From Alphaproteobacteria bacterium (GTDB lineage: Bacteria; Pseudomonadota; Alphaproteobacteria; Bin95), in contig CBDBIS010000001.1 in assembly GCA_965206075.1 (NCBI GenBank), forward strand, positions 12,928 to 76,927: a stretch of 64,000 bases of DNA. The letters are read 5' to 3'. A program made the position numbers and the translations under genes. Shown one piece after another: positions 5,813 to 52,343 of this stretch. Each line of letters begins with the position of its first letter. Within the stretch, counting starts at the first letter, position 1. The notes beneath the pieces were generated by a model, which made no database searches, was not told where the DNA came from, and saw nothing but the letters and a program-made list of their open reading frames with translations.

Positions 5813-5992
5813 CGTGCCTCCACTGGGGTCAGGAGGCCAGATTGGGAGGGCAATTGCGGATGGATGCGCCCGTTCGCGACGATTTTCGCGGCATGGACGA
5901 CAGAATTTCGCTTGCGGGGCGCCTCCAGGCGATTGACAAGGCCGCGACACAAGGGCATTTGGGCTGTAGCGACATCTTGCCGGAGTCGGCCG

Positions 5993-7018
5993 ATGGCTGG
6001 CGAGCAGGTCTTCCGCGGGAGCGACGGCGCACCTGTCGAGGTGACGCTACTTCCTATTCCGAACTTCTCCTTCTCGAGTTTTGCAGCGCTGGTGGAACCC
6101 CTGCGCCTTGCGAACTATGTCGCGGAGCGCCCGCACTACAGTTGGCGCGTCGCGACGCCCGAGGGGATGCCGGTCCGGTCCAGTTGCGGCGTTGCGGTGG
6201 CGGCGGACGAGCCGGCCGAGCGGATCCGGCGCCCGGAGAATGTCGTCGTCTGCGGCGGCGTGGACGGCTGGGCGTTCGAGGACCCCGCTACCTTCGCGCT
6301 GTTGCGCCGCTGGGCGCGGGACGGCGCGCATGTCGGCGCGGCATGCACCGGCGCTTACGTGCTTGCGCGGGCAGGCCTCCTGCGCGACCGGCGCTGCACC
6401 ATCCATTGGGAGAGTCTCGACGGGTTCGCAGAGCGTTTCCCGGATATCGACCTGCGCGCGGCGCTGTTCGAGATCGACCGGGACCGGTTCACCTGCACGG
6501 GCGGCGCCGCGGCCTGCGACATGATCCTGCAGGACATCGGGTGGCGGTTCGGGGAGCAACTGGCGGCGGCGGTCGCCGGCCAGCTTCTCCACGACCGCAT
6601 CCGCAGCGGCCGGGACGAGCGCTACCTGCCCCACCAGGCCTGGCTCCGCACCAGCCATCCGGTGCTGGTGAAGGCGCTGACCGCGATGGCCGAACATCGC
6701 GAGGAGCGCCTTTCCCTGGTCGAGATCGCCCGCGAGGCCAATGTCTCGCCGCGCCAGCTTGAGCGGCTGTTCCGGCGCTATCTCGATTCGACCCCGGCGC
6801 GCTGGTATTTGCGGATGCGCCTCACGCGGGCGCGCCAACTGCTGATCGAGACGCAGATGCCGGTGACCTGGATCGCCGTTGCCTGCGGCTTCGGTTCGAC
6901 CTCGCACTTCTCGAAGAATTACAGGCAGTTCTTCGGCGTCTGCCCGCGAGAGGAGCGGCGCCAGCGCCGCGCGGCCCGCGAATCGGCCGTCCCGCCGCCG
7001 GTAAGCCGCGCCGCATAG
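5993..7018 (+). CDS. GlxA-family transcriptional regulator (DJ-1/PfpI domain + AraC HTH)
   Basis: N-terminal class-I glutamine-amidotransferase-like/DJ-1 fold (VVCGG...CTGA). C-terminal AraC HTH (IAVACGFGSTSHFSKNYRQFFG). Divergent from the nbaC-DapA-like-GcvT-like operon. Confidence 0.8.
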   Translation: MAGEQVFRGSDGAPVEVTLLPIPNFSFSSFAALVEPLRLANYVAERPHYSWRVATPEGMPVRSSCGVAVAADEPAERIRRPENVVVCGGVDGWAFEDPATFALLRRWARDGAHVGAACTGAYVLARAGLLRDRRCTIHWESLDGFAERFPDIDLRAALFEIDRDRFTCTGGAAACDMILQDIGWRFGEQLAAAVAGQLLHDRIRSGRDERYLPHQAWLRTSHPVLVKALTAMAEHREERLSLVEIAREANVSPRQLERLFRRYLDSTPARWYLRMRLTRARQLLIETQMPVTWIAVACGFGSTSHFSKNYRQFFGVCPREERRQRRAARESAVPPPVSRAA

Positions 7019-7065: not shown

Positions 7066-7092
7066 TGTCATGAGATGTCATGTTTTGTCATG
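7066..7092 (+). repeat. Iteron array A: 3x TGTCATG direct repeats, 10-bp period
   Basis: gaTGTCATGagaTGTCATGtttTGTCATGttcc read directly from the sequence. Confidence 0.9.
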
Positions 7093-7450: not shown

Positions 7451-7548
7451 CGCCCGACCTGCCGTGCTTCCCTCCGTGTCGCGGGAGAGAAGCTTCGCGG
7501 CGGAAATCCGGGCCTACGGACCCGAAACCCCCGCGATGCGTCATCGGA

Positions 7549-7574
7549 TGTCATGTTCTGTCATGTTTTCCATG
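7549..7574 (+). repeat. Iteron array B: TGTCATG x2 + degenerate TCCATG, 10-bp period
   Basis: gaTGTCATGttcTGTCATGttttCCATG. Followed by hairpin GGGCATattcgaATGCCC. Confidence 0.85.
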
Positions 7575-7735
7575 CGCACGGGGCATATTCGAATGCCCGT
7601 TCCGGCATGACGCCGTCCTTTCCCGCGGGGTCTTGGGGTATTCCTCCCTGTTCCGGTGCCTGTCTGTCTTCGGCATAGGTCCCTCCTCTCGACCCGGTTT
7701 CACTCCCACCGGGCGGTTGGCGGCGGGACCCTTTT

Positions 7736-7850
7736 TGCGCGCGTATCCTGCGTGCGCGCCCGCGCCCGGCCGCCCGCGTCTTGCGCCGACGCGGTTCGTG
7801 CGCCTGATTGCGCGCGCGAGACGCCGGACGCACCTGTCCCGTCGCCTCCC
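7736..7850 (-). repeat. ~115-bp conserved GC-rich segment (copy 1). It is the paralog of the leader upstream of the TerS-like gene at 32926-33040
   Basis: Shared blocks ttttgcgcgcgt.tc..gcgtgcgcg ... gcggttcgtgcgcctgattgcgcgcg.gag.c.gga.g.gcac.t.gcctgtc between the two loci. Confidence 0.8.
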
Positions 7851-7924
7851 GCCGGGGCTTTTTTGCGGGCCCCAGTCCTTGCTTCCCTCTGCAGAAAAGC
7901 CGAAAGGCGGCCCCGGAAGCCGCC

Positions 7925-7962
7925 TCTCTCCACTCTCATCATACTACACTTTTCTCCAGGTC
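7925..7962 (-). promoter_or_regulatory. Putative sigma70-type promoter (minus strand) in an AT-rich islet, reading toward the conserved segment and array B
   Basis: Minus-strand reading gCTTGACctggagaaaagtgtagTATGATgag (TTGAC - 16 bp - TATGAT). Adjacent palindrome GAAAAaTTTTC. Confidence 0.4.
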
Positions 7963-8027
7963 AAGCCCTCTGGCGGGAAAAACATGAAAATTTTTCTAAT
8001 TTCCTGCCACAAGCCGAACGGCGCGCG

Positions 8028-8230
8028 GGCGGGAGCCATGGACGAACCCCGGTTCGGGGGCCGGGGTGACAATTGAGAGGCCGCCCCTCTTTCTCCCCTC
8101 GCTTGCGGGAGGGGCCGGGGGACGGCCCACTCTCTCAACCCGACGGGTCTTTGCCGGGCTTCGCCCACCGCTTCCGCTGGCGCGCAAGCGGTCCCCTCAC
8201 CCAACCTCTCCCCGCAAGCGGGGAGAGGGG
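8028..8230. repeat. RIME-like hairpin plus 'ccctcaccc/ctccccgcaagcggggagagggg' repeat family
   Basis: The motif family recurs at 33170-33470 and 43380-43520 (gcttccgc..gcggaagcgg, ctctcccc..ggggagag palindromes). Confidence 0.75.
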
Positions 8231-27672: not shown

Positions 27673-28374
27673 ATGAGCAGGGAAATCGACAATCTCGACT
27701 GGCCGGGGCTCGGGGCCGGCCTGCTGGAATGCGGCCATGCGCGGGCGGCGGGCGTGCTGTCCCCGGACGCATGCGCCGCGTTCCAAGCCTTCTGGGAGCG
27801 GGACGAGATGTTCCGGCGGCGCATCGTCATGGCGCGGCATGGCTACGGTGAGGGCGCCTACGCCTATTTCGCCGACCCGCTGCCGGAGGCGGTACGGGCG
27901 CTGCGCGAGGGCCTCTACCGCCGTCTTGCGCCGCTCGCCAACGAGGCCATGGCCCGGCTCGGCAGGGAGACCCGCTATCCGCCGGGCCATGCCGCCTACC
28001 GGGACGTGTGCCATGCGGCGGGGCAGACGAAGCCGACGCCGCTCATGCTGCGCTACGGGGAAGGAGGCTATAACCGCCTGCATCGCGACCTCTACGGGGA
28101 CCTCGCCTTTCCGTTCCAGGCCGTATTCCTGTTGTCCGAACCCGGAACCGACTTCACCGGCGGGGAGTTCCTGCTGGTCGAGAACCGGATGCGTATGCAG
28201 GCGATGGGCGAGGCGGTGCCGCTGGGGCAGGGGGACATGGTCGTCTTTGCCGTGCGGGACAGACCGGTTGCCGGCAGGCGTGGTTATGTCCGGGCCGAGA
28301 TGCGCCATGGCGTGTCGCGGGTCCGTTCCGGCGAGCGGTTCACGCTCGGCATCATCTTCCACGACGCGGCTTAG
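27673..28374 (+). CDS. 2OG-Fe(II) oxygenase family protein
   Basis: HxD...H jelly-roll region (NRLHRDLYGD...). ~233 aa. Confidence 0.72.
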   Translation: MSREIDNLDWPGLGAGLLECGHARAAGVLSPDACAAFQAFWERDEMFRRRIVMARHGYGEGAYAYFADPLPEAVRALREGLYRRLAPLANEAMARLGRETRYPPGHAAYRDVCHAAGQTKPTPLMLRYGEGGYNRLHRDLYGDLAFPFQAVFLLSEPGTDFTGGEFLLVENRMRMQAMGEAVPLGQGDMVVFAVRDRPVAGRRGYVRAEMRHGVSRVRSGERFTLGIIFHDAA

Positions 28375-31764: not shown

Positions 31765-31802
31765 GAGGCCCCCGGGGCGCATTGGCCCCGGGGGCCTTTT
31801 GC
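31765..31802 (+). terminator. Rho-independent terminator after katG
   Basis: GAGGCCCCCGGGGCgcattgGCCCCGGGGGCCTTTT perfect GC stem followed by a T-run. Confidence 0.75.
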
Positions 31803-31874
31803 ATGGGCAGGCCGTTCGGTCCGGGAGACGTTGCGCCGGGCGGGGTCCTGCCGGGCAAGAGGACCCCAGCGAAG

Positions 31875-31901
31875 TGTCATGGAGTGTCATGAAATGTCAT
31901 G
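31875..31901 (+). repeat. Iteron array C: 3x TGTCATG, 10-bp period, overlapping the 3' end/stop of the TerS-like gene
   Basis: aagTGTCATGgagTGTCATGaaaTGTCATGttc. The gene's stop codon (TGA on the minus strand) lies inside repeat 2. Confidence 0.9.
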
Positions 31902-32876
31902 TTCGAGGGCGGAACCGGCGTCCTCCGGCCCGGTCTTCCTCTTCTTCTTTTTCTTCTTCTTTCCCGTCGCCGGTCCACTCCAGCCACCGTCTTCGCCGCC
32001 CTGCCATTCGTCGCGTTCGATCCGATCCCGCCTTCGCTCCTCGCGTTCGGCCGGCGACCAGGGGTCGTAGATGTCGGCGTAGCCGTTGCGGCGCTGGTAG
32101 AGCCAGTCGTGCTCCGCGCCGTCGGCCCGGTCGTCGTCGATCATGCCGTCAGTCCGGTCGTCGTAGGCGGACCTGTCGTCGCCGGCCCAGGGGCAGTCTT
32201 CATAGGCCTCCTCGGGCGGGTCGTCGGCGGGCGGCAGGTCGTTTGCCGGTGCGGGCGGGGTCTCGAAGCCGACGGGCAGGCATGCGCGCTCCTCGACCGC
32301 CCCGGCGAGCCTCCGGGCGGCCTCCTCATGCGCGGCTTCGTCGAAACCCTCCTGCGCCTCCAGTTCCTCGCGGCTTTCGCGGTGGCGGGCGAGCGCGCGT
32401 TCGGCCCGGTCCCGGCCCCGGCGCACGGCCTCGGCCAAGGGTCCGGGCTCGGTGCCGACCTCAAGCGCCTCGCCCGCCTCGATCTCTCCGAGTTCGTCCT
32501 CGTGCGGCAGCGGCCAGAGCCGGGCGCGGGCTCCGCCGGCGGGCGCGACCAGCCCGGCAATCTCCGCCTGGAAGCGCAGGACCCGGAGCATGGTATAGGC
32601 GGACCCGCTGGCAACGGCCGCATCCCACGCCTGCTCCAGCCGGGCCAGCACGATCTGCGCCTCGTCGCGCTCGGTGCGCTTCCAGGACAGGCGGATGCGC
32701 CGCAGGCGCTCCACCACATAGGGGCGTTCGAGCAAGGCGCATCCGGTCTGGCGGGCGGAGCGCTCGGAATAACCGGCCTGCCTTGCGGCGCCGGCGGCAT
32801 TGCCGGAGACGGCATAGTGGCGGCAGAAGGCTTCCTGACGGGTGGAGAGGGCAATGGCGGGCTGGATGATGGGCAT
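31887..32876 (-). CDS. Orphan phage terminase small-subunit (Terminase_2/P27-family HTH) domain protein with long acidic tail and poly-Lys C-terminus
   Basis: N-terminal LSTRQEAFCRHYAVSGNAAGAARQAGYSERSARQTGCALLERPYVVERL matches the TerS DNA-binding domain. The rest is D/E-rich low complexity ending KKKKKKKRK. AGGAG RBS before MPIIQ. No large terminase or other phage genes nearby. Confidence 0.7.
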   Translation of the reverse strand: MPIIQPAIALSTRQEAFCRHYAVSGNAAGAARQAGYSERSARQTGCALLERPYVVERLRRIRLSWKRTERDEAQIVLARLEQAWDAAVASGSAYTMLRVLRFQAEIAGLVAPAGGARARLWPLPHEDELGEIEAGEALEVGTEPGPLAEAVRRGRDRAERALARHRESREELEAQEGFDEAAHEEAARRLAGAVEERACLPVGFETPPAPANDLPPADDPPEEAYEDCPWAGDDRSAYDDRTDGMIDDDRADGAEHDWLYQRRNGYADIYDPWSPAEREERRRDRIERDEWQGGEDGGWSGPATGKKKKKKKRKTGPEDAGSALEHDIS

Positions 32877-32925
32877 GGCGGCTCCTCGGTTCGGTTCCCG
32901 TTCTTTCCGTCCCGTCATCGGAGCG

Positions 32926-33040
32926 ACCCTGTTTTGCGCGCGTTTCGCGTGCGCGGGCGGCTGGGCGCGCGTCAGCGCCGGCGCGGTTCGTGCGCCTGAT
33001 TGCGCGCGTGAGCCGGAGGGCGCACTTCGCCTGTCTGCCG
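32926..33040 (-). repeat. ~115-bp conserved GC-rich leader (copy 2) upstream of the TerS-like gene
   Basis: Paralogous to 7736-7850 (see feature there). Confidence 0.8.
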
Positions 33041-33097
33041 AATCGGGGTCGTTCCGCGCCGGGCCGGCACGGGCGGGAGGCGGTCCATGGTCACCGC

Positions 33098-33135
33098 CTC
33101 CCTGGAACCTATTCTAGCATATTTTCCTAGAATGC
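33098..33135 (-). promoter_or_regulatory. Putative promoter with overlapping palindromic operator ATTCTAG-N9-CTAGAAT for the TerS-like gene
   Basis: Minus-strand reading gcTTGCATtctaggaaaatatgcTAGAATagg. The dyad ATTCTAGcatattttCCTAGAAT overlaps the -35/-10 elements. AT-rich islet. Confidence 0.4.
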
Positions 33136-33592
33136 AAGCCCCTGTCCCGAATTTATTTTCGAGACCTTCGGGAAAGACCCGTCGCGCCGGGAGGGAGAAG
33201 CCGCGCGCATCTCTCCTCTCCCCGCTCCCGCTGCTGCCGGTGGAAAGCGGGCCGGGGTTCGGGGGACAGGCGGCCTTCCTCTTTTCCCCCTCCCTCGCTT
33301 GCGAGGGAGAGCCTGCCCCGGACCGCGATCCGGGGGCCGGCGTGGGAGCCTCTCTCTCGGCGTGACGGGCGGTTGCCGGGGCTTCGCCCGCCGCTTCCGC
33401 AGGCGGAAGCGGCCCCTCACCTTGCCTTCTCCCTGAGGGAGAGGGTCTTCCGGGAGTGTGTTTCCGTCCTCTCCGTCATGGGGACCGGCGCGCCCACCGC
33501 TTTCGCCAGGGCAGGCGGTGGGATGGCATTCTCTGTGAGTTGCAACCCGGCGCCGTCGGTATGGGTTCTCCGGGAGCGCGGCCGGGAACCGC

Positions 33593-51293: not shown

Positions 51294-52335
51294 CTGTGAT
51301 CTCTCAATAGGTTGTCCATCCGGGACTGATTCTCGGAAGCTGATGGGTGACGAAAACCTGTCAGCGAACCGAGAAGCGAGCCCCGGATGAACGTCCACAA
51401 GAATGCAAAACTCACGCCGCGCGGTCGAGCCGAGATCGTCCGCCGCGTGATCGACCAGGGGCAGACCCCGAAGGCCGTGGCCACGGCCTTCGGGGTCTGC
51501 GAACGCACCGTGCGCAAGTGGGTCCGGCGCTTCCAGGCCGAGGGAGCCGAAGGCCTGCGGGACCGCTCGTCGCGACCGCACACCCTGCGCCGACCGACCC
51601 CGGCCCCGGTGGTCCGCCGGATCGCCGCGCTGCGCCGGCGGCGCTGGTCCGGCGCGCAGATCGCCGCCCAGCTCGGCGTCTCCACCGCAACCGTCAGCCG
51701 CGTCCTCAGGCGCCTCGGCCTCAACCGCCTCAAGGCGCTCGAACCGCCCCAGCCGGTCAGGCGCTACGAGCGCGAGAACCCGGGCGAACTCATCCACATC
51801 GACATCAAGAAGCTCGGACGCTTCGACCGACCGGGACACCGCGTCACCGGCGACCGTACCGGCCAAAGCAACGCGCGCGGCATCGGATGGGAGTATCTCC
51901 ACGTCTGCATCGACGACCACTCCCGCGTCGCCTTCAGCCAGATCCTGCCCGACGAGAAGAAGGAAAGCGCCATCGCCTTCCTCAACGCCGCAATCGCCTA
52001 CTACAAGAGCCTCGGCGTCGCCGTCAGCCGCGTCATGACCGATAACGGGTCCTGCTACAGGGCCCACGCCTTCCGCGACGCCTGCAAAACCCGCGGCCTC
52101 AAGCACATCCGAACCAGACCCTACACGCCAAGAACCAACGGAAAGGCCGAACGCTTCATCCAGACCGCCCTCAGAGAATGGGCCTACGTTCGCGCCTACC
52201 AAAACTCAGGCCAACGCGAACACCACCTCCCGCACTGGCTCCACCGATACAACTGGCACCGACCGCATGGTAGCCTGAAGGCAAATACACCCATCAGCCG
52301 ACTCCGCCTGACCCAGGACAACCTGTTGATGCTCC
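51294..52335 (+). mobile_element. IS481-family insertion sequence (~1.04 kb) with ~27-bp imperfect terminal inverted repeats, inserted at a CTAG
   Basis: Left end ctag|CTGTGatctctcaatAGGTTGTCCatc. Right end ggtcaGGACAACCTgttgatgctcCACAG|ctag. CTAG on both flanks is the typical IS481 target duplication. Confidence 0.8.
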
Positions 52336-52343
52336 ACAGCTAG
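51387..52343 (+). CDS. IS481-family DDE transposase
   Basis: MNVHKNAKLTPRGRAEIVRRV N-terminal HTH and rve integrase core (DIKKLGRF...YTPRTNGKAERF). Confidence 0.92.
   Translation: MNVHKNAKLTPRGRAEIVRRVIDQGQTPKAVATAFGVCERTVRKWVRRFQAEGAEGLRDRSSRPHTLRRPTPAPVVRRIAALRRRRWSGAQIAAQLGVSTATVSRVLRRLGLNRLKALEPPQPVRRYERENPGELIHIDIKKLGRFDRPGHRVTGDRTGQSNARGIGWEYLHVCIDDHSRVAFSQILPDEKKESAIAFLNAAIAYYKSLGVAVSRVMTDNGSCYRAHAFRDACKTRGLKHIRTRPYTPRTNGKAERFIQTALREWAYVRAYQNSGQREHHLPHWLHRYNWHRPHGSLKANTPISRLRLTQDNLLMLHS

Follow-up and report, generated by a model that had tools for sequence, protein, structure and literature searches.

A dispersed ~1.3-kb cassette with a solitary TerS-like gene and a phased CATGACA array in uncultured Alphaproteobacteria

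Small terminases (TerS) are familiar from the packaging modules of phages, satellites and gene transfer agents (GTAs), and their canonical role is to recruit the large terminase (TerL) for DNA cutting and headful packaging. Here we analyze a 64-kb stretch of an alphaproteobacterial contig (CBDBIS010000001.1; hereafter the window) in which a gene for a TerS-like protein stands by itself, preceded by a promoter-like region and a conserved leader and ending in a short array of direct repeats. We are highly confident that this locus is one copy of a family of ~1.3-kb single-gene cassettes with the anatomy set out below. Literature searches on orphan and TerS-like proteins and on terminases in sponge symbionts yielded no description of such a system, in agreement with a preliminary description of the locus, which had not recognized the combination either.

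TerS proteins of the SPP1/SF6 G1P kind assemble into rings of 8 to 11 subunits through a central helical core, engage TerL through a C-terminal beta-barrel and tail, and are encoded beside TerL, portal and head genes. Their helix-turn-helix domain at the N-terminus is homologous to that of the cassette protein (39% identity), and so are the helices behind it. In SPP1 the packaging site (pac) contains direct repeats in sets that extend over the terS promoters and the start of the gene, and adjacent helix-turn-helix motifs on TerS rings lie about one turn of B-DNA apart (PMC4737164). The cassette also has direct repeats beside and inside its TerS-like gene, at the 3′ end where SPP1 has them at the promoter and 5′ end (PMC4737164), and their 10-bp phasing matches the motif spacing of the rings. 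Unlike SPP1 and SF6, however, the cassette has no adjacent TerL, portal or other phage gene, occurs in many copies per chromosome and carries a putative LexA box, and the C-terminal half of the TerS profile is replaced in its protein by a ~200-residue family-specific region.

Staphylococcus aureus pathogenicity islands (SaPIs) have an island-specific pac site close to terS. In SaPIs and phage-inducible chromosomal islands (PICIs), as in the cassette, a chromosomal terS is separate from TerL; theirs works with the packaging machinery of a helper. Citing Ubeda et al. (2007), PMC5052747 states that SaPI packaging operon I, which includes terS, is under LexA control. SaPIs and PICIs are, however, ~10–15 kb long, carry integrase, att, replication, repressor and capsid-remodelling functions, and excise and replicate, whereas the cassette is a single gene at conserved positions in 5 to 11 copies. 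PICI membership was therefore rejected: the ~1.3-kb unit has no integrase, att, replication or repressor functions and no conserved neighbors. The small terminase of the Rhodobacter capsulatus GTA is likewise alphaproteobacterial and maintained by its host, and it serves DNA packaging outside a true phage (PMC6854486). Set beside the cassette gene by description, it differs in being single-copy and in lying next to TerL within the GTA structural cluster.

Solitary, multi-copy genes annotated as “terminase small subunit” are also found among metabolic genes on megaplasmids of Skermanella (Azospirillaceae), for example those for WP_201082974.1 and WP_201083329.1 on pTT6-2, where three of the four matching places were inspected. 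Their N-terminal domain is ~33% identical to that of the cassette protein and is followed by a disordered C-terminal extension, and an exact GTTC-N7-GTTC lies upstream in three of the four Skermanella copies inspected (two on pTT6-2, one in S. rosea). They differ from the cassette in lacking both the CATGACA array and a long leader, in their C-terminal region and in having cultured hosts. As far as we found, their annotation is automatic only and no functional study deals with them. The pTT6-2 copies (Skermanella sp. TT6, NZ_CP067422.1) lie at 93083–93703, 159717–160391 and 303155–303787, two of them with GTTC-N7-GTTC at −69; genes annotated as Rpn-family nucleases stand beside two (160873–161886 and 301407–302396), and the 160-kb copy is followed by a second gene, annotated “hypothetical protein”, that starts with the same TerS-type helix-turn-helix motif (AGYSPQGARQRG). 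The Skermanella genes suggest that TerS-like orphans accompanied by SOS-type boxes form a wider theme in Rhodospirillales, of which the sponge-symbiont cassette would be an elaborated form. The cassette itself is best filed under the theme of a TerS plus its site, and outside phage packaging modules, PICIs and insertion sequences (ISs).

The TerS-like protein

The protein is encoded on the minus strand, its ATG being the reverse complement of CAT at 32874–32876:

31887–32876, minus strand: TerS-like coding sequence, 329 residues (residues 8–133 TerS-like; 136–290 acidic and family-specific; 291–329 hypervariable tail)
31935–31961, minus strand: KKKKKKKRK tract, residues 306–314, inside the hypervariable tail; the plus strand reads CTTCCTCTTCTTCTTTTTCTTCTTCTT

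Residues 8–133 comprise a helix-turn-helix and core helices. Pfam Terminase_2 (PF03592) matches residues 25–96 (E=4.7e-13; 50.4 bits against a cut-off of 26.1), and PHROG 51, a terminase small subunit group, matches the protein with E=3.5e-14. A search with the family profile matched the PDB entries 4zc3, 2cmp and 3zqp, which are SF6/SPP1-like G1P DNA-binding domains, and the AlphaFold model of the domain superposes on 4zc3 and 2cmp in Foldseek with target-normalised TM scores of 0.82–0.86 and 39% identity. Phage TerS proteins of ~150 residues align to residues 8–133 with ~30% identity, and AF2 predicts helices at residues 52–90 and 93–106. Judged by profiles and models, the first ~133 residues are a predicted, nearly complete TerS of the Terminase_2 type, of the SPP1/SF6 G1P kind. 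The preliminary description was right to see a terminase-small-subunit DNA-binding domain at the N-terminus. Its label “P27-type” has to be replaced: at E≤1 Terminase_2 was the only Pfam match, with none to the P27-type family (Terminase_4), and an NCBIfam scan returned nothing.

The remainder of the protein had been taken for ~230 residues of acidic, low-complexity sequence fused to a lysine tail. The tail is there, and tails of other copies are rich in either K or D/E. The acidic region at residues 136–290, however, aligns across the family, contains invariant motifs and predicted helices, and is not of low complexity; only the last ~40 residues are hypervariable. Relatives of the C-terminal region are confined to this cassette family (30 matches in 1.84 billion representative proteins), and all eight of the matches that were scanned against Pfam carry a Terminase_2 N-terminus. 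Ratios of nonsynonymous to synonymous substitution (dN/dS) are 0.13–0.28 for residues 1–135, 0.2–0.58 for residues 136–290 and ~1 for the last ~40 residues; given these values, the protein appears to be functional.

The array, the upstream region and the LexA-type box

The other parts of the cassette, from its 3′ to its 5′ limit, are as follows:

31842–31867, minus strand: GC-rich hairpin GGGGTCCT...AGGACCCC, close to the array on its 3′ side, where the transcript may end
31864–31874, minus strand: conserved sequence flanking the array on its 3′ side, with CTTCGCTGGGG as its minus-strand reading; approximate 3′ limit of homology
31875–31901, minus strand: array of three CATGACA (TGTCATG on the plus strand) at exact 10-bp spacing, containing the stop codon
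31902–31926, minus strand: ~25 nt 5′ of the array, conserved as DNA though paralogs read it in different frames
32877–33104, minus strand: GC-rich conserved 5′ leader, with a potential 5′ hairpin at 33075–33102
32882–32887, minus strand: ribosome-binding site GAGGAG; conserved as (A)AGGAG, 7–10 nt before the ATG
32889–32903, minus strand: GAAC-N7-GAAC direct repeat, GAACGGGAACCGAAC, of the form of an alphaproteobacterial LexA (SOS) box
33111–33137, minus strand: promoter-like region; −10 TAGAAT at 33111–33116 with a preceding TG (extended −10), and TTGCAT at 33132–33137, 15 nt upstream
33111–33133, no strand assigned: dyad ATTCTAG-N9-CTAGAAT, present in the window and not a family feature
33138–33158, minus strand: AT-rich upstream block, CGAAAATAAATTCGGG here and GAAATAATTCC in the family; approximate 5′ limit of homology

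Exact TGTCATG heptamers start at 31875, 31885 and 31895, and the stop codon (31887–31889) lies within the middle copy, just as the preliminary description reported. TGTCATG occurs 11 times in the window against 4.0 expected, with eight of these occurrences grouped into three phased clusters. A period of 10 bp, not being divisible by 3, shifts the reading frame from one heptamer to the next, so that each of the three frames meets a TGA and an ATG in the array. A phased array was counted wherever two or more C[ACG]TGAC units followed one another with a 10-bp period. The 88 such arrays in 674 kb of sequence (window and loci) all lie at or in cassettes and in the orientation of the gene, and the frame of the array differs among paralogs (...PDHDIS-stop in some, ...TMTFHDIP-stop in others) while the surrounding DNA is nearly the same. 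It follows that the arrays are nucleic-acid elements. The stretch 5′ of the array behaves similarly: between loci L038 and L042 one of its 25 nt differs, yet the peptides read ...PATPVSHPTMTFHDIP and ...PRNPGFSPDHDIS. Most copies have C(T/G)(T/G)CGCnGGGG after the last heptamer, and similar GC-rich palindromes follow the array at many loci; the hairpin in the window has no T-run, and the terminator scan made no call on it.

Almost every intact 3′ end has the array, even where the protein is only 41% identical. A distant subfamily (55–60% identity over residues 11–200) has two further arrays inside the open reading frame (ORF), of the form CATGAC-N4-CCTGAC-N4-CCTTAC, in which the stop-creating heptamer is altered from CATGAC to CCTTAC. 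From these sequences it looks as if the C-terminus of this subfamily has grown by read-through from array to array. Its members (L061–L079; for example L066, 4001–5260) are 350–446 residues long, with two in-frame internal arrays plus the terminal one, and the internal arrays encode a repeated peptide, (M)T(N/E)PDISLH.

The preliminary description had staked its case on a Terminase_2 match and on arrays that accompany the homologs; the match is present, and the association of every phased array with a cassette bears out the second point and rules out a generic genome-wide repeat. A Pho box was considered, as the core of the heptamer resembles CTGTCAT. Pho boxes repeat every 11 bp; the arrays have a period of exactly 10 bp and never lie upstream of other genes, and the idea was rejected. 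A viral origin of the arrays was rejected as well, as a scan of IMG/VR for three CATGACA-N3 units returned 12 unrelated tandem repeats with no TerS-like gene nearby. These hits (L081–L092) lie in AT-rich intergenic contexts (for example in L087, L090 and L091) or belong to longer 10-bp tandem repeats.

At the other end of the cassette, the pattern CTTG(A/C)(C/A)-N15-TGnTAnnAT is kept in 45 copies. A consensus promoter scan made no call at the window promoter because the spacer is 15 nt and the scan demands 16–18 nt. The preliminary description had noted the dyad over this promoter as overlapping its elements. The dyad is present; as an operator it was rejected, since with at most one mismatch it is retained in only six of the 45 copies, and it is therefore incidental.

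The leader, previously put at ~115 bp, is conserved over ~235 nt from the −10 to the ATG, with long invariant blocks, and its divergence is about half the synonymous rate. Rfam gave no match in the window at gathering score and nothing relevant at E≤5 in 31800–33250. RNAalifold found one covarying pair in the leader, and the 5′ hairpin, 90% paired against 46–66% in slid controls, was no better than shuffles (109/500). An upstream ORF was rejected, as by inspection its ATG is not conserved. A hidden Markov model (HMM) of the leader had no match upstream of more distant family members, where the promoter runs almost straight into the GAAC box.

GTTC-N7-GTTC and GAAC-N7-GAAC are reported forms of the alphaproteobacterial LexA site (PMC3091678). 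The box at 32889–32903 is the single exact match in the window, and an exact box is found at a fixed position in 44 cassettes (43 related loci and the window), with invariant half-sites around 14 different spacers, with its end 1–4 nt short of the ribosome-binding site. Cassettes of the distant subfamily, as well as L072 and L076, have the box just downstream of the −10 hexamer. Going by this sequence pattern, we regard SOS control of the cassette gene as an evenly balanced possibility. The gene ssb stands just downstream of the orthologous cassettes L031 and L057, and upstream of it is a LexA-type site with one mismatch, GTTACCCATTCGTTC, identical in both (L031, 5244–5258; L057, 6334–6348); this is the only hint of the motif at an SOS gene.

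Dispersed copies, their hosts and their evolution

A protein search found 404 relatives with 66–95% identity over the full length, several of them on the same Mb-sized contig. When genomes were scanned, one for each species, 114 loci proved to encode a family member, with 5 to 11 or more in each genome. Each of the 114 is in one of the metagenome-assembled genomes (MAGs) of uncultured bacteria labelled Alphaproteobacteria or Rhodospirillaceae, and the carriers include Mb-sized chromosomes. Among the carriers are bin65 (MPMX), which lives as a symbiont in the sponge Aplysina aerophoba (PMC5649159), and a genome named Spongia_Bin9; the carrier clade is at least partly sponge-associated. Complete or near-complete carrier genomes are OY730441.1, OZ253490.1, OZ219785-9, CAXXPN01, CAXXWS02 and CBDBGH01. 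No positional ortholog of the window copy was found: exact-sequence look-ups of the window protein and of P0004 gave no match, and the closest relative, P0001 (95% identity), lies in a different genomic context from the window copy.

When the window was compared with 80 fetched loci, DNA homology started ~260–280 bp upstream of the ATG and stopped ~15–40 bp past the array, between unrelated flanks. In the window this corresponds to ~31861–33158, so that the interval singled out in the preliminary description was almost exactly one repeat unit. No partner gene recurred in the 80 loci and the window, and no TerL, portal or capsid gene was found near any cassette. Short-chain dehydrogenase and acyl-CoA dehydrogenase genes were rejected as partners, these recurring neighbors being merely members of common paralog families. 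Loci L072 (1330–2920) and L076 (700–3020) represent a third subfamily (41% identity), with a canonical TTGACA-16-TAGATT promoter and a GAAC-N7-GAAT/GAAA box; the gene directly upstream of both, whose product ends in ...FCIGK, is one that we take to be mnmE-like.

The window holds further, incomplete copies:

7539–7982, minus strand: decayed second cassette, with a promoter-like −10 at 7938–7943, leader at 7727–7982, array at 7549–7565 and a degenerate copy at 7539
7066–7092, minus strand: three CATGACA with a 10-bp period, standing alone as a solo array and oriented likewise, ~450 bp past the array of the decayed cassette

The decayed cassette has lost its TerS-like coding sequence and has an unrelated 41-residue ORF (7551–7676) in between; its leader differs from that of the main copy by d~0.5, about the neutral level, and tblastn detected no remnants of coding sequence near it or near the solo array. 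Both stand just after a gene for an AraC/DJ-1-type regulator (5864–7018). A second array 200–450 bp downstream is also found in L030, L043 and L074.

The main copy was described as a solitary gene between katG and a regulator pair, and a Pfam scan of 30 window ORFs agrees, with no TerL, portal, capsid or phage-type integrase. Its neighbors are katG, an OxyR-like LysR regulator, an RpiR/SIS pair and other housekeeping genes. The only mobile-element gene among the 30 ORFs encodes an IS481-type transposase (51387–52340; LZ_Tnp_IS481 and rve domains), 18 kb off. An Oxygenase-NA gene (PF09859, which according to Pfam acts on damaged DNA) at 27673–28371 adjoins the divergent OxyR-like/katG pair, so that genes for oxidative stress and DNA damage are grouped beside the cassette. 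REP-like GC-rich repeats (for example ...CTTCGCCCnCCGCTTCCGC... and TCTCCCCGCAAGCGGGGAGAGG) lie upstream of both window copies, at 33180–33460 and 8040–8230, outside the family-wide conserved unit.

The best match of every cassette is a paralog in the same genome, with 86–99% identity in five of six genomes and ~80–86% in OZ253490, whereas positional orthologs are 78–85% identical between flanks of 85–94%. On this comparison the cassettes evolve in concert within genomes, where copies differ by 1–24%, mostly 3–15%. Positional orthologs with both flanks in common are L004/L042, L007/L024/L069, L013/L038 and L031/L057; many other loci have only one flank in common, and the cassettes therefore sit at rearrangement breakpoints. 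About 15% of copies are truncated or interrupted. We found no target-site duplication, as k-mers shared between flanks were no longer than in mismatched pairs, no terminal inverted repeats on inspection of the boundary alignments, and no transposase domain or fold.

Two copies carry insertions. In the contig of P0001 (L096, 5617–7100), an IS110-family element of ~1.45 kb (DEDD_Tnp_IS110 and Transposase_20) is inserted between the second and third CATGACA, which suggests that the array or its spacer is a preferred IS110 target. In L080 (4820–7258), ~2.4 kb is inserted between a truncated TerS-like coding sequence and the array, and the leader is displaced to 2159–2408.

A candidate role and its alternatives

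The reading that we tentatively favor, and which we hold to be possible rather than probable, is that the TerS-like protein, induced by the SOS response, forms an oligomer for which the phased array of its own gene serves as a pac-like binding site. LexA would repress the gene through the GAAC-N7-GAAC box, and DNA damage would relieve the repression. The protein would form an oligomer resembling the TerS ring, whose neighboring helix-turn-helix motifs would dock on the phased trio of heptamers with which the protein's gene ends, and gene and array would make up a self-contained “TerS plus pac-like site” unit. The nucleoprotein complex might then recruit a nuclease or motor encoded elsewhere, be it the TerL of a prophage or GTA or another nuclease, and the cassette would be the starting point for the cutting, and possibly the packaging, of DNA. 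SaPI operon I sets a precedent for a LexA-controlled terS on the chromosome that diverts the machinery of a helper (PMC5052747). Repair of breaks and of transferred DNA against other copies could add to the concerted evolution and the rearrangements. Binding of the protein to its own array is proposed because the motifs of TerS rings lie about one turn of B-DNA apart and the SPP1 pac consists of direct repeats around terS; by this analogy we would give it an even chance. A packaging outcome is rather unlikely.

Several observations weigh against this reading, each functional step of which is one that we infer. The Terminase_2 match ends at profile position 73 of 141, and AF2 predicts neither a beta-barrel nor a known TerL-binding C-terminus in the protein, which after residue 135 is helical or disordered. 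The SF6 DNA-binding domain binds pac DNA weakly and without sequence specificity (PMC4737164), and docking on the heptamers in particular is therefore not a given. No TerL, portal or capsid gene adjoins a cassette or is among the 30 window ORFs scanned, and the Skermanella relatives have no arrays. The family is absent from IMG/VR, where a profile scan gave only matches of 30–36% to the helix-turn-helix domain. In the subfamily of the window the box lies ~215 nt downstream of the promoter, where a LexA operator would be unusual. The 1 Mb of sequence examined contains neither lexA nor recA and offered no canonical SOS gene bearing an exact box by which to validate the motif in this lineage. Finally, concerted evolution and breakpoints are expected of any dispersed 1.3-kb repeat and need no site-specific break.

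It is rather unlikely that the protein is instead a domesticated, TerS-derived, SOS-induced regulator or nucleoid protein that binds elsewhere or non-specifically, with the array serving as mere punctuation, that is, a three-frame stop and transcript end. The strongest purifying selection does fall on the helix-turn-helix domain, no packaging partner is nearby, the protein has, like many regulators, a unique C-terminal region with disordered parts, and the Skermanella relatives have SOS-type boxes without arrays. Punctuation would also account for a TGA in all three frames from the 10-nt spacing and for the GC-rich hairpin after the array. A frame-independent stop, however, needs neither three perfect 7-mers nor conservation of ~25 nt upstream and ~12 nt downstream, and the arrays within the ORFs of the distant subfamily cannot act as stops; a regulator, moreover, leaves 5 to 11 near-identical copies, each with its array, without a reason. 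Another alternative, which we consider distinctly unlikely, is a recombination module, where the TerS-like protein and a host nuclease, for example of the Rpn type, would promote breaks or exchange at the array without packaging, and gene conversion among the copies and reshuffled flanks would result. Concerted evolution within genomes, cassettes at junctions with one shared flank, a hypervariable, indel-rich segment directly adjoining the array and the SOS-type box are all consistent with it, and two of the three examined pTT6-2 copies adjoin genes annotated as Rpn family recombination-promoting nucleases. Ordinary RecA-dependent exchange between 1.3-kb repeats, however, gives the same patterns, and no nuclease gene is linked to the sponge-type cassettes.

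That the cassette is a selfish mobile element is very unlikely. Its ends would be the AT-rich 5′ block and the 3′ array, in the manner of an IS or a miniature inverted-repeat transposable element (MITE), and it would be mobilized by the helix-turn-helix protein itself or by a factor supplied in trans. Such an element would fit several observations: the copies are numerous and dispersed, and their boundaries are sharp while their flanks are unrelated; an internally deleted derivative keeps both ends (7539–7982); solo arrays occur; and one end has stops in all frames, a common feature of IS ends. The lack of a transposase or integrase fold or domain, of target-site duplications and, by inspection, of terminal inverted repeats speaks against it; several positions are, in addition, conserved between genomes whose flanks are only 85–94% identical, and a within-genome divergence of 1–24% (mostly 3–15%) is unlike that of an actively transposing IS. 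The database label “terminase small subunit” and the ~15% of truncated or interrupted copies might bring to mind a decaying prophage or GTA remnant, a terS in name without present function. With purifying selection over ~290 codons, conserved non-coding parts and dozens of intact copies without phage gene neighbors at any locus, this is extremely unlikely. An iteron-regulated replicon was rejected, as there is no Rep domain and the carriers include Mb-sized chromosomes; PLSDB plasmids hold no family member, only the distant TerS-like genes of Skermanella. The roles put forward in the preliminary description, a plasmid or GTA-like regulator or a recombination site, are candidates.

If the protein does bind its array as a pac-like site, the cassettes could be minimal “TerS plus pac” beacons, scattered around the symbiont chromosome, at which, upon DNA damage and induction of a prophage or GTA, a terminase encoded in trans would load and start headful packaging from 5 to 11 or more fixed chromosomal sites. 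We regard this extension as unlikely. If true, sponge symbionts would harbor either a system for lateral transduction across the whole host or the smallest phage satellite known, and the beacons would also drive the homogenization of the copies and the reshuffling of their flanks.

The cassette thus stands as a free-standing, multi-copy TerS-like unit that is conserved in position, is under purifying selection and has its own array and the form of an SOS-type operator. The related multi-copy orphan family in cultured Skermanella offers a cultured model in which experiments are feasible. The bacteria that carry the cassette belong to dense communities associated with animals. Should the arrays prove to be pac-like sites, stress would make whole segments of the chromosomes of uncultured symbionts transducible, by a simple and testable route; should they prove to be sites of recombination, hot spots of genome rearrangement in these lineages would be explained. 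Whichever holds, the family brings to light a C-terminal protein region that is new and a conserved leader.

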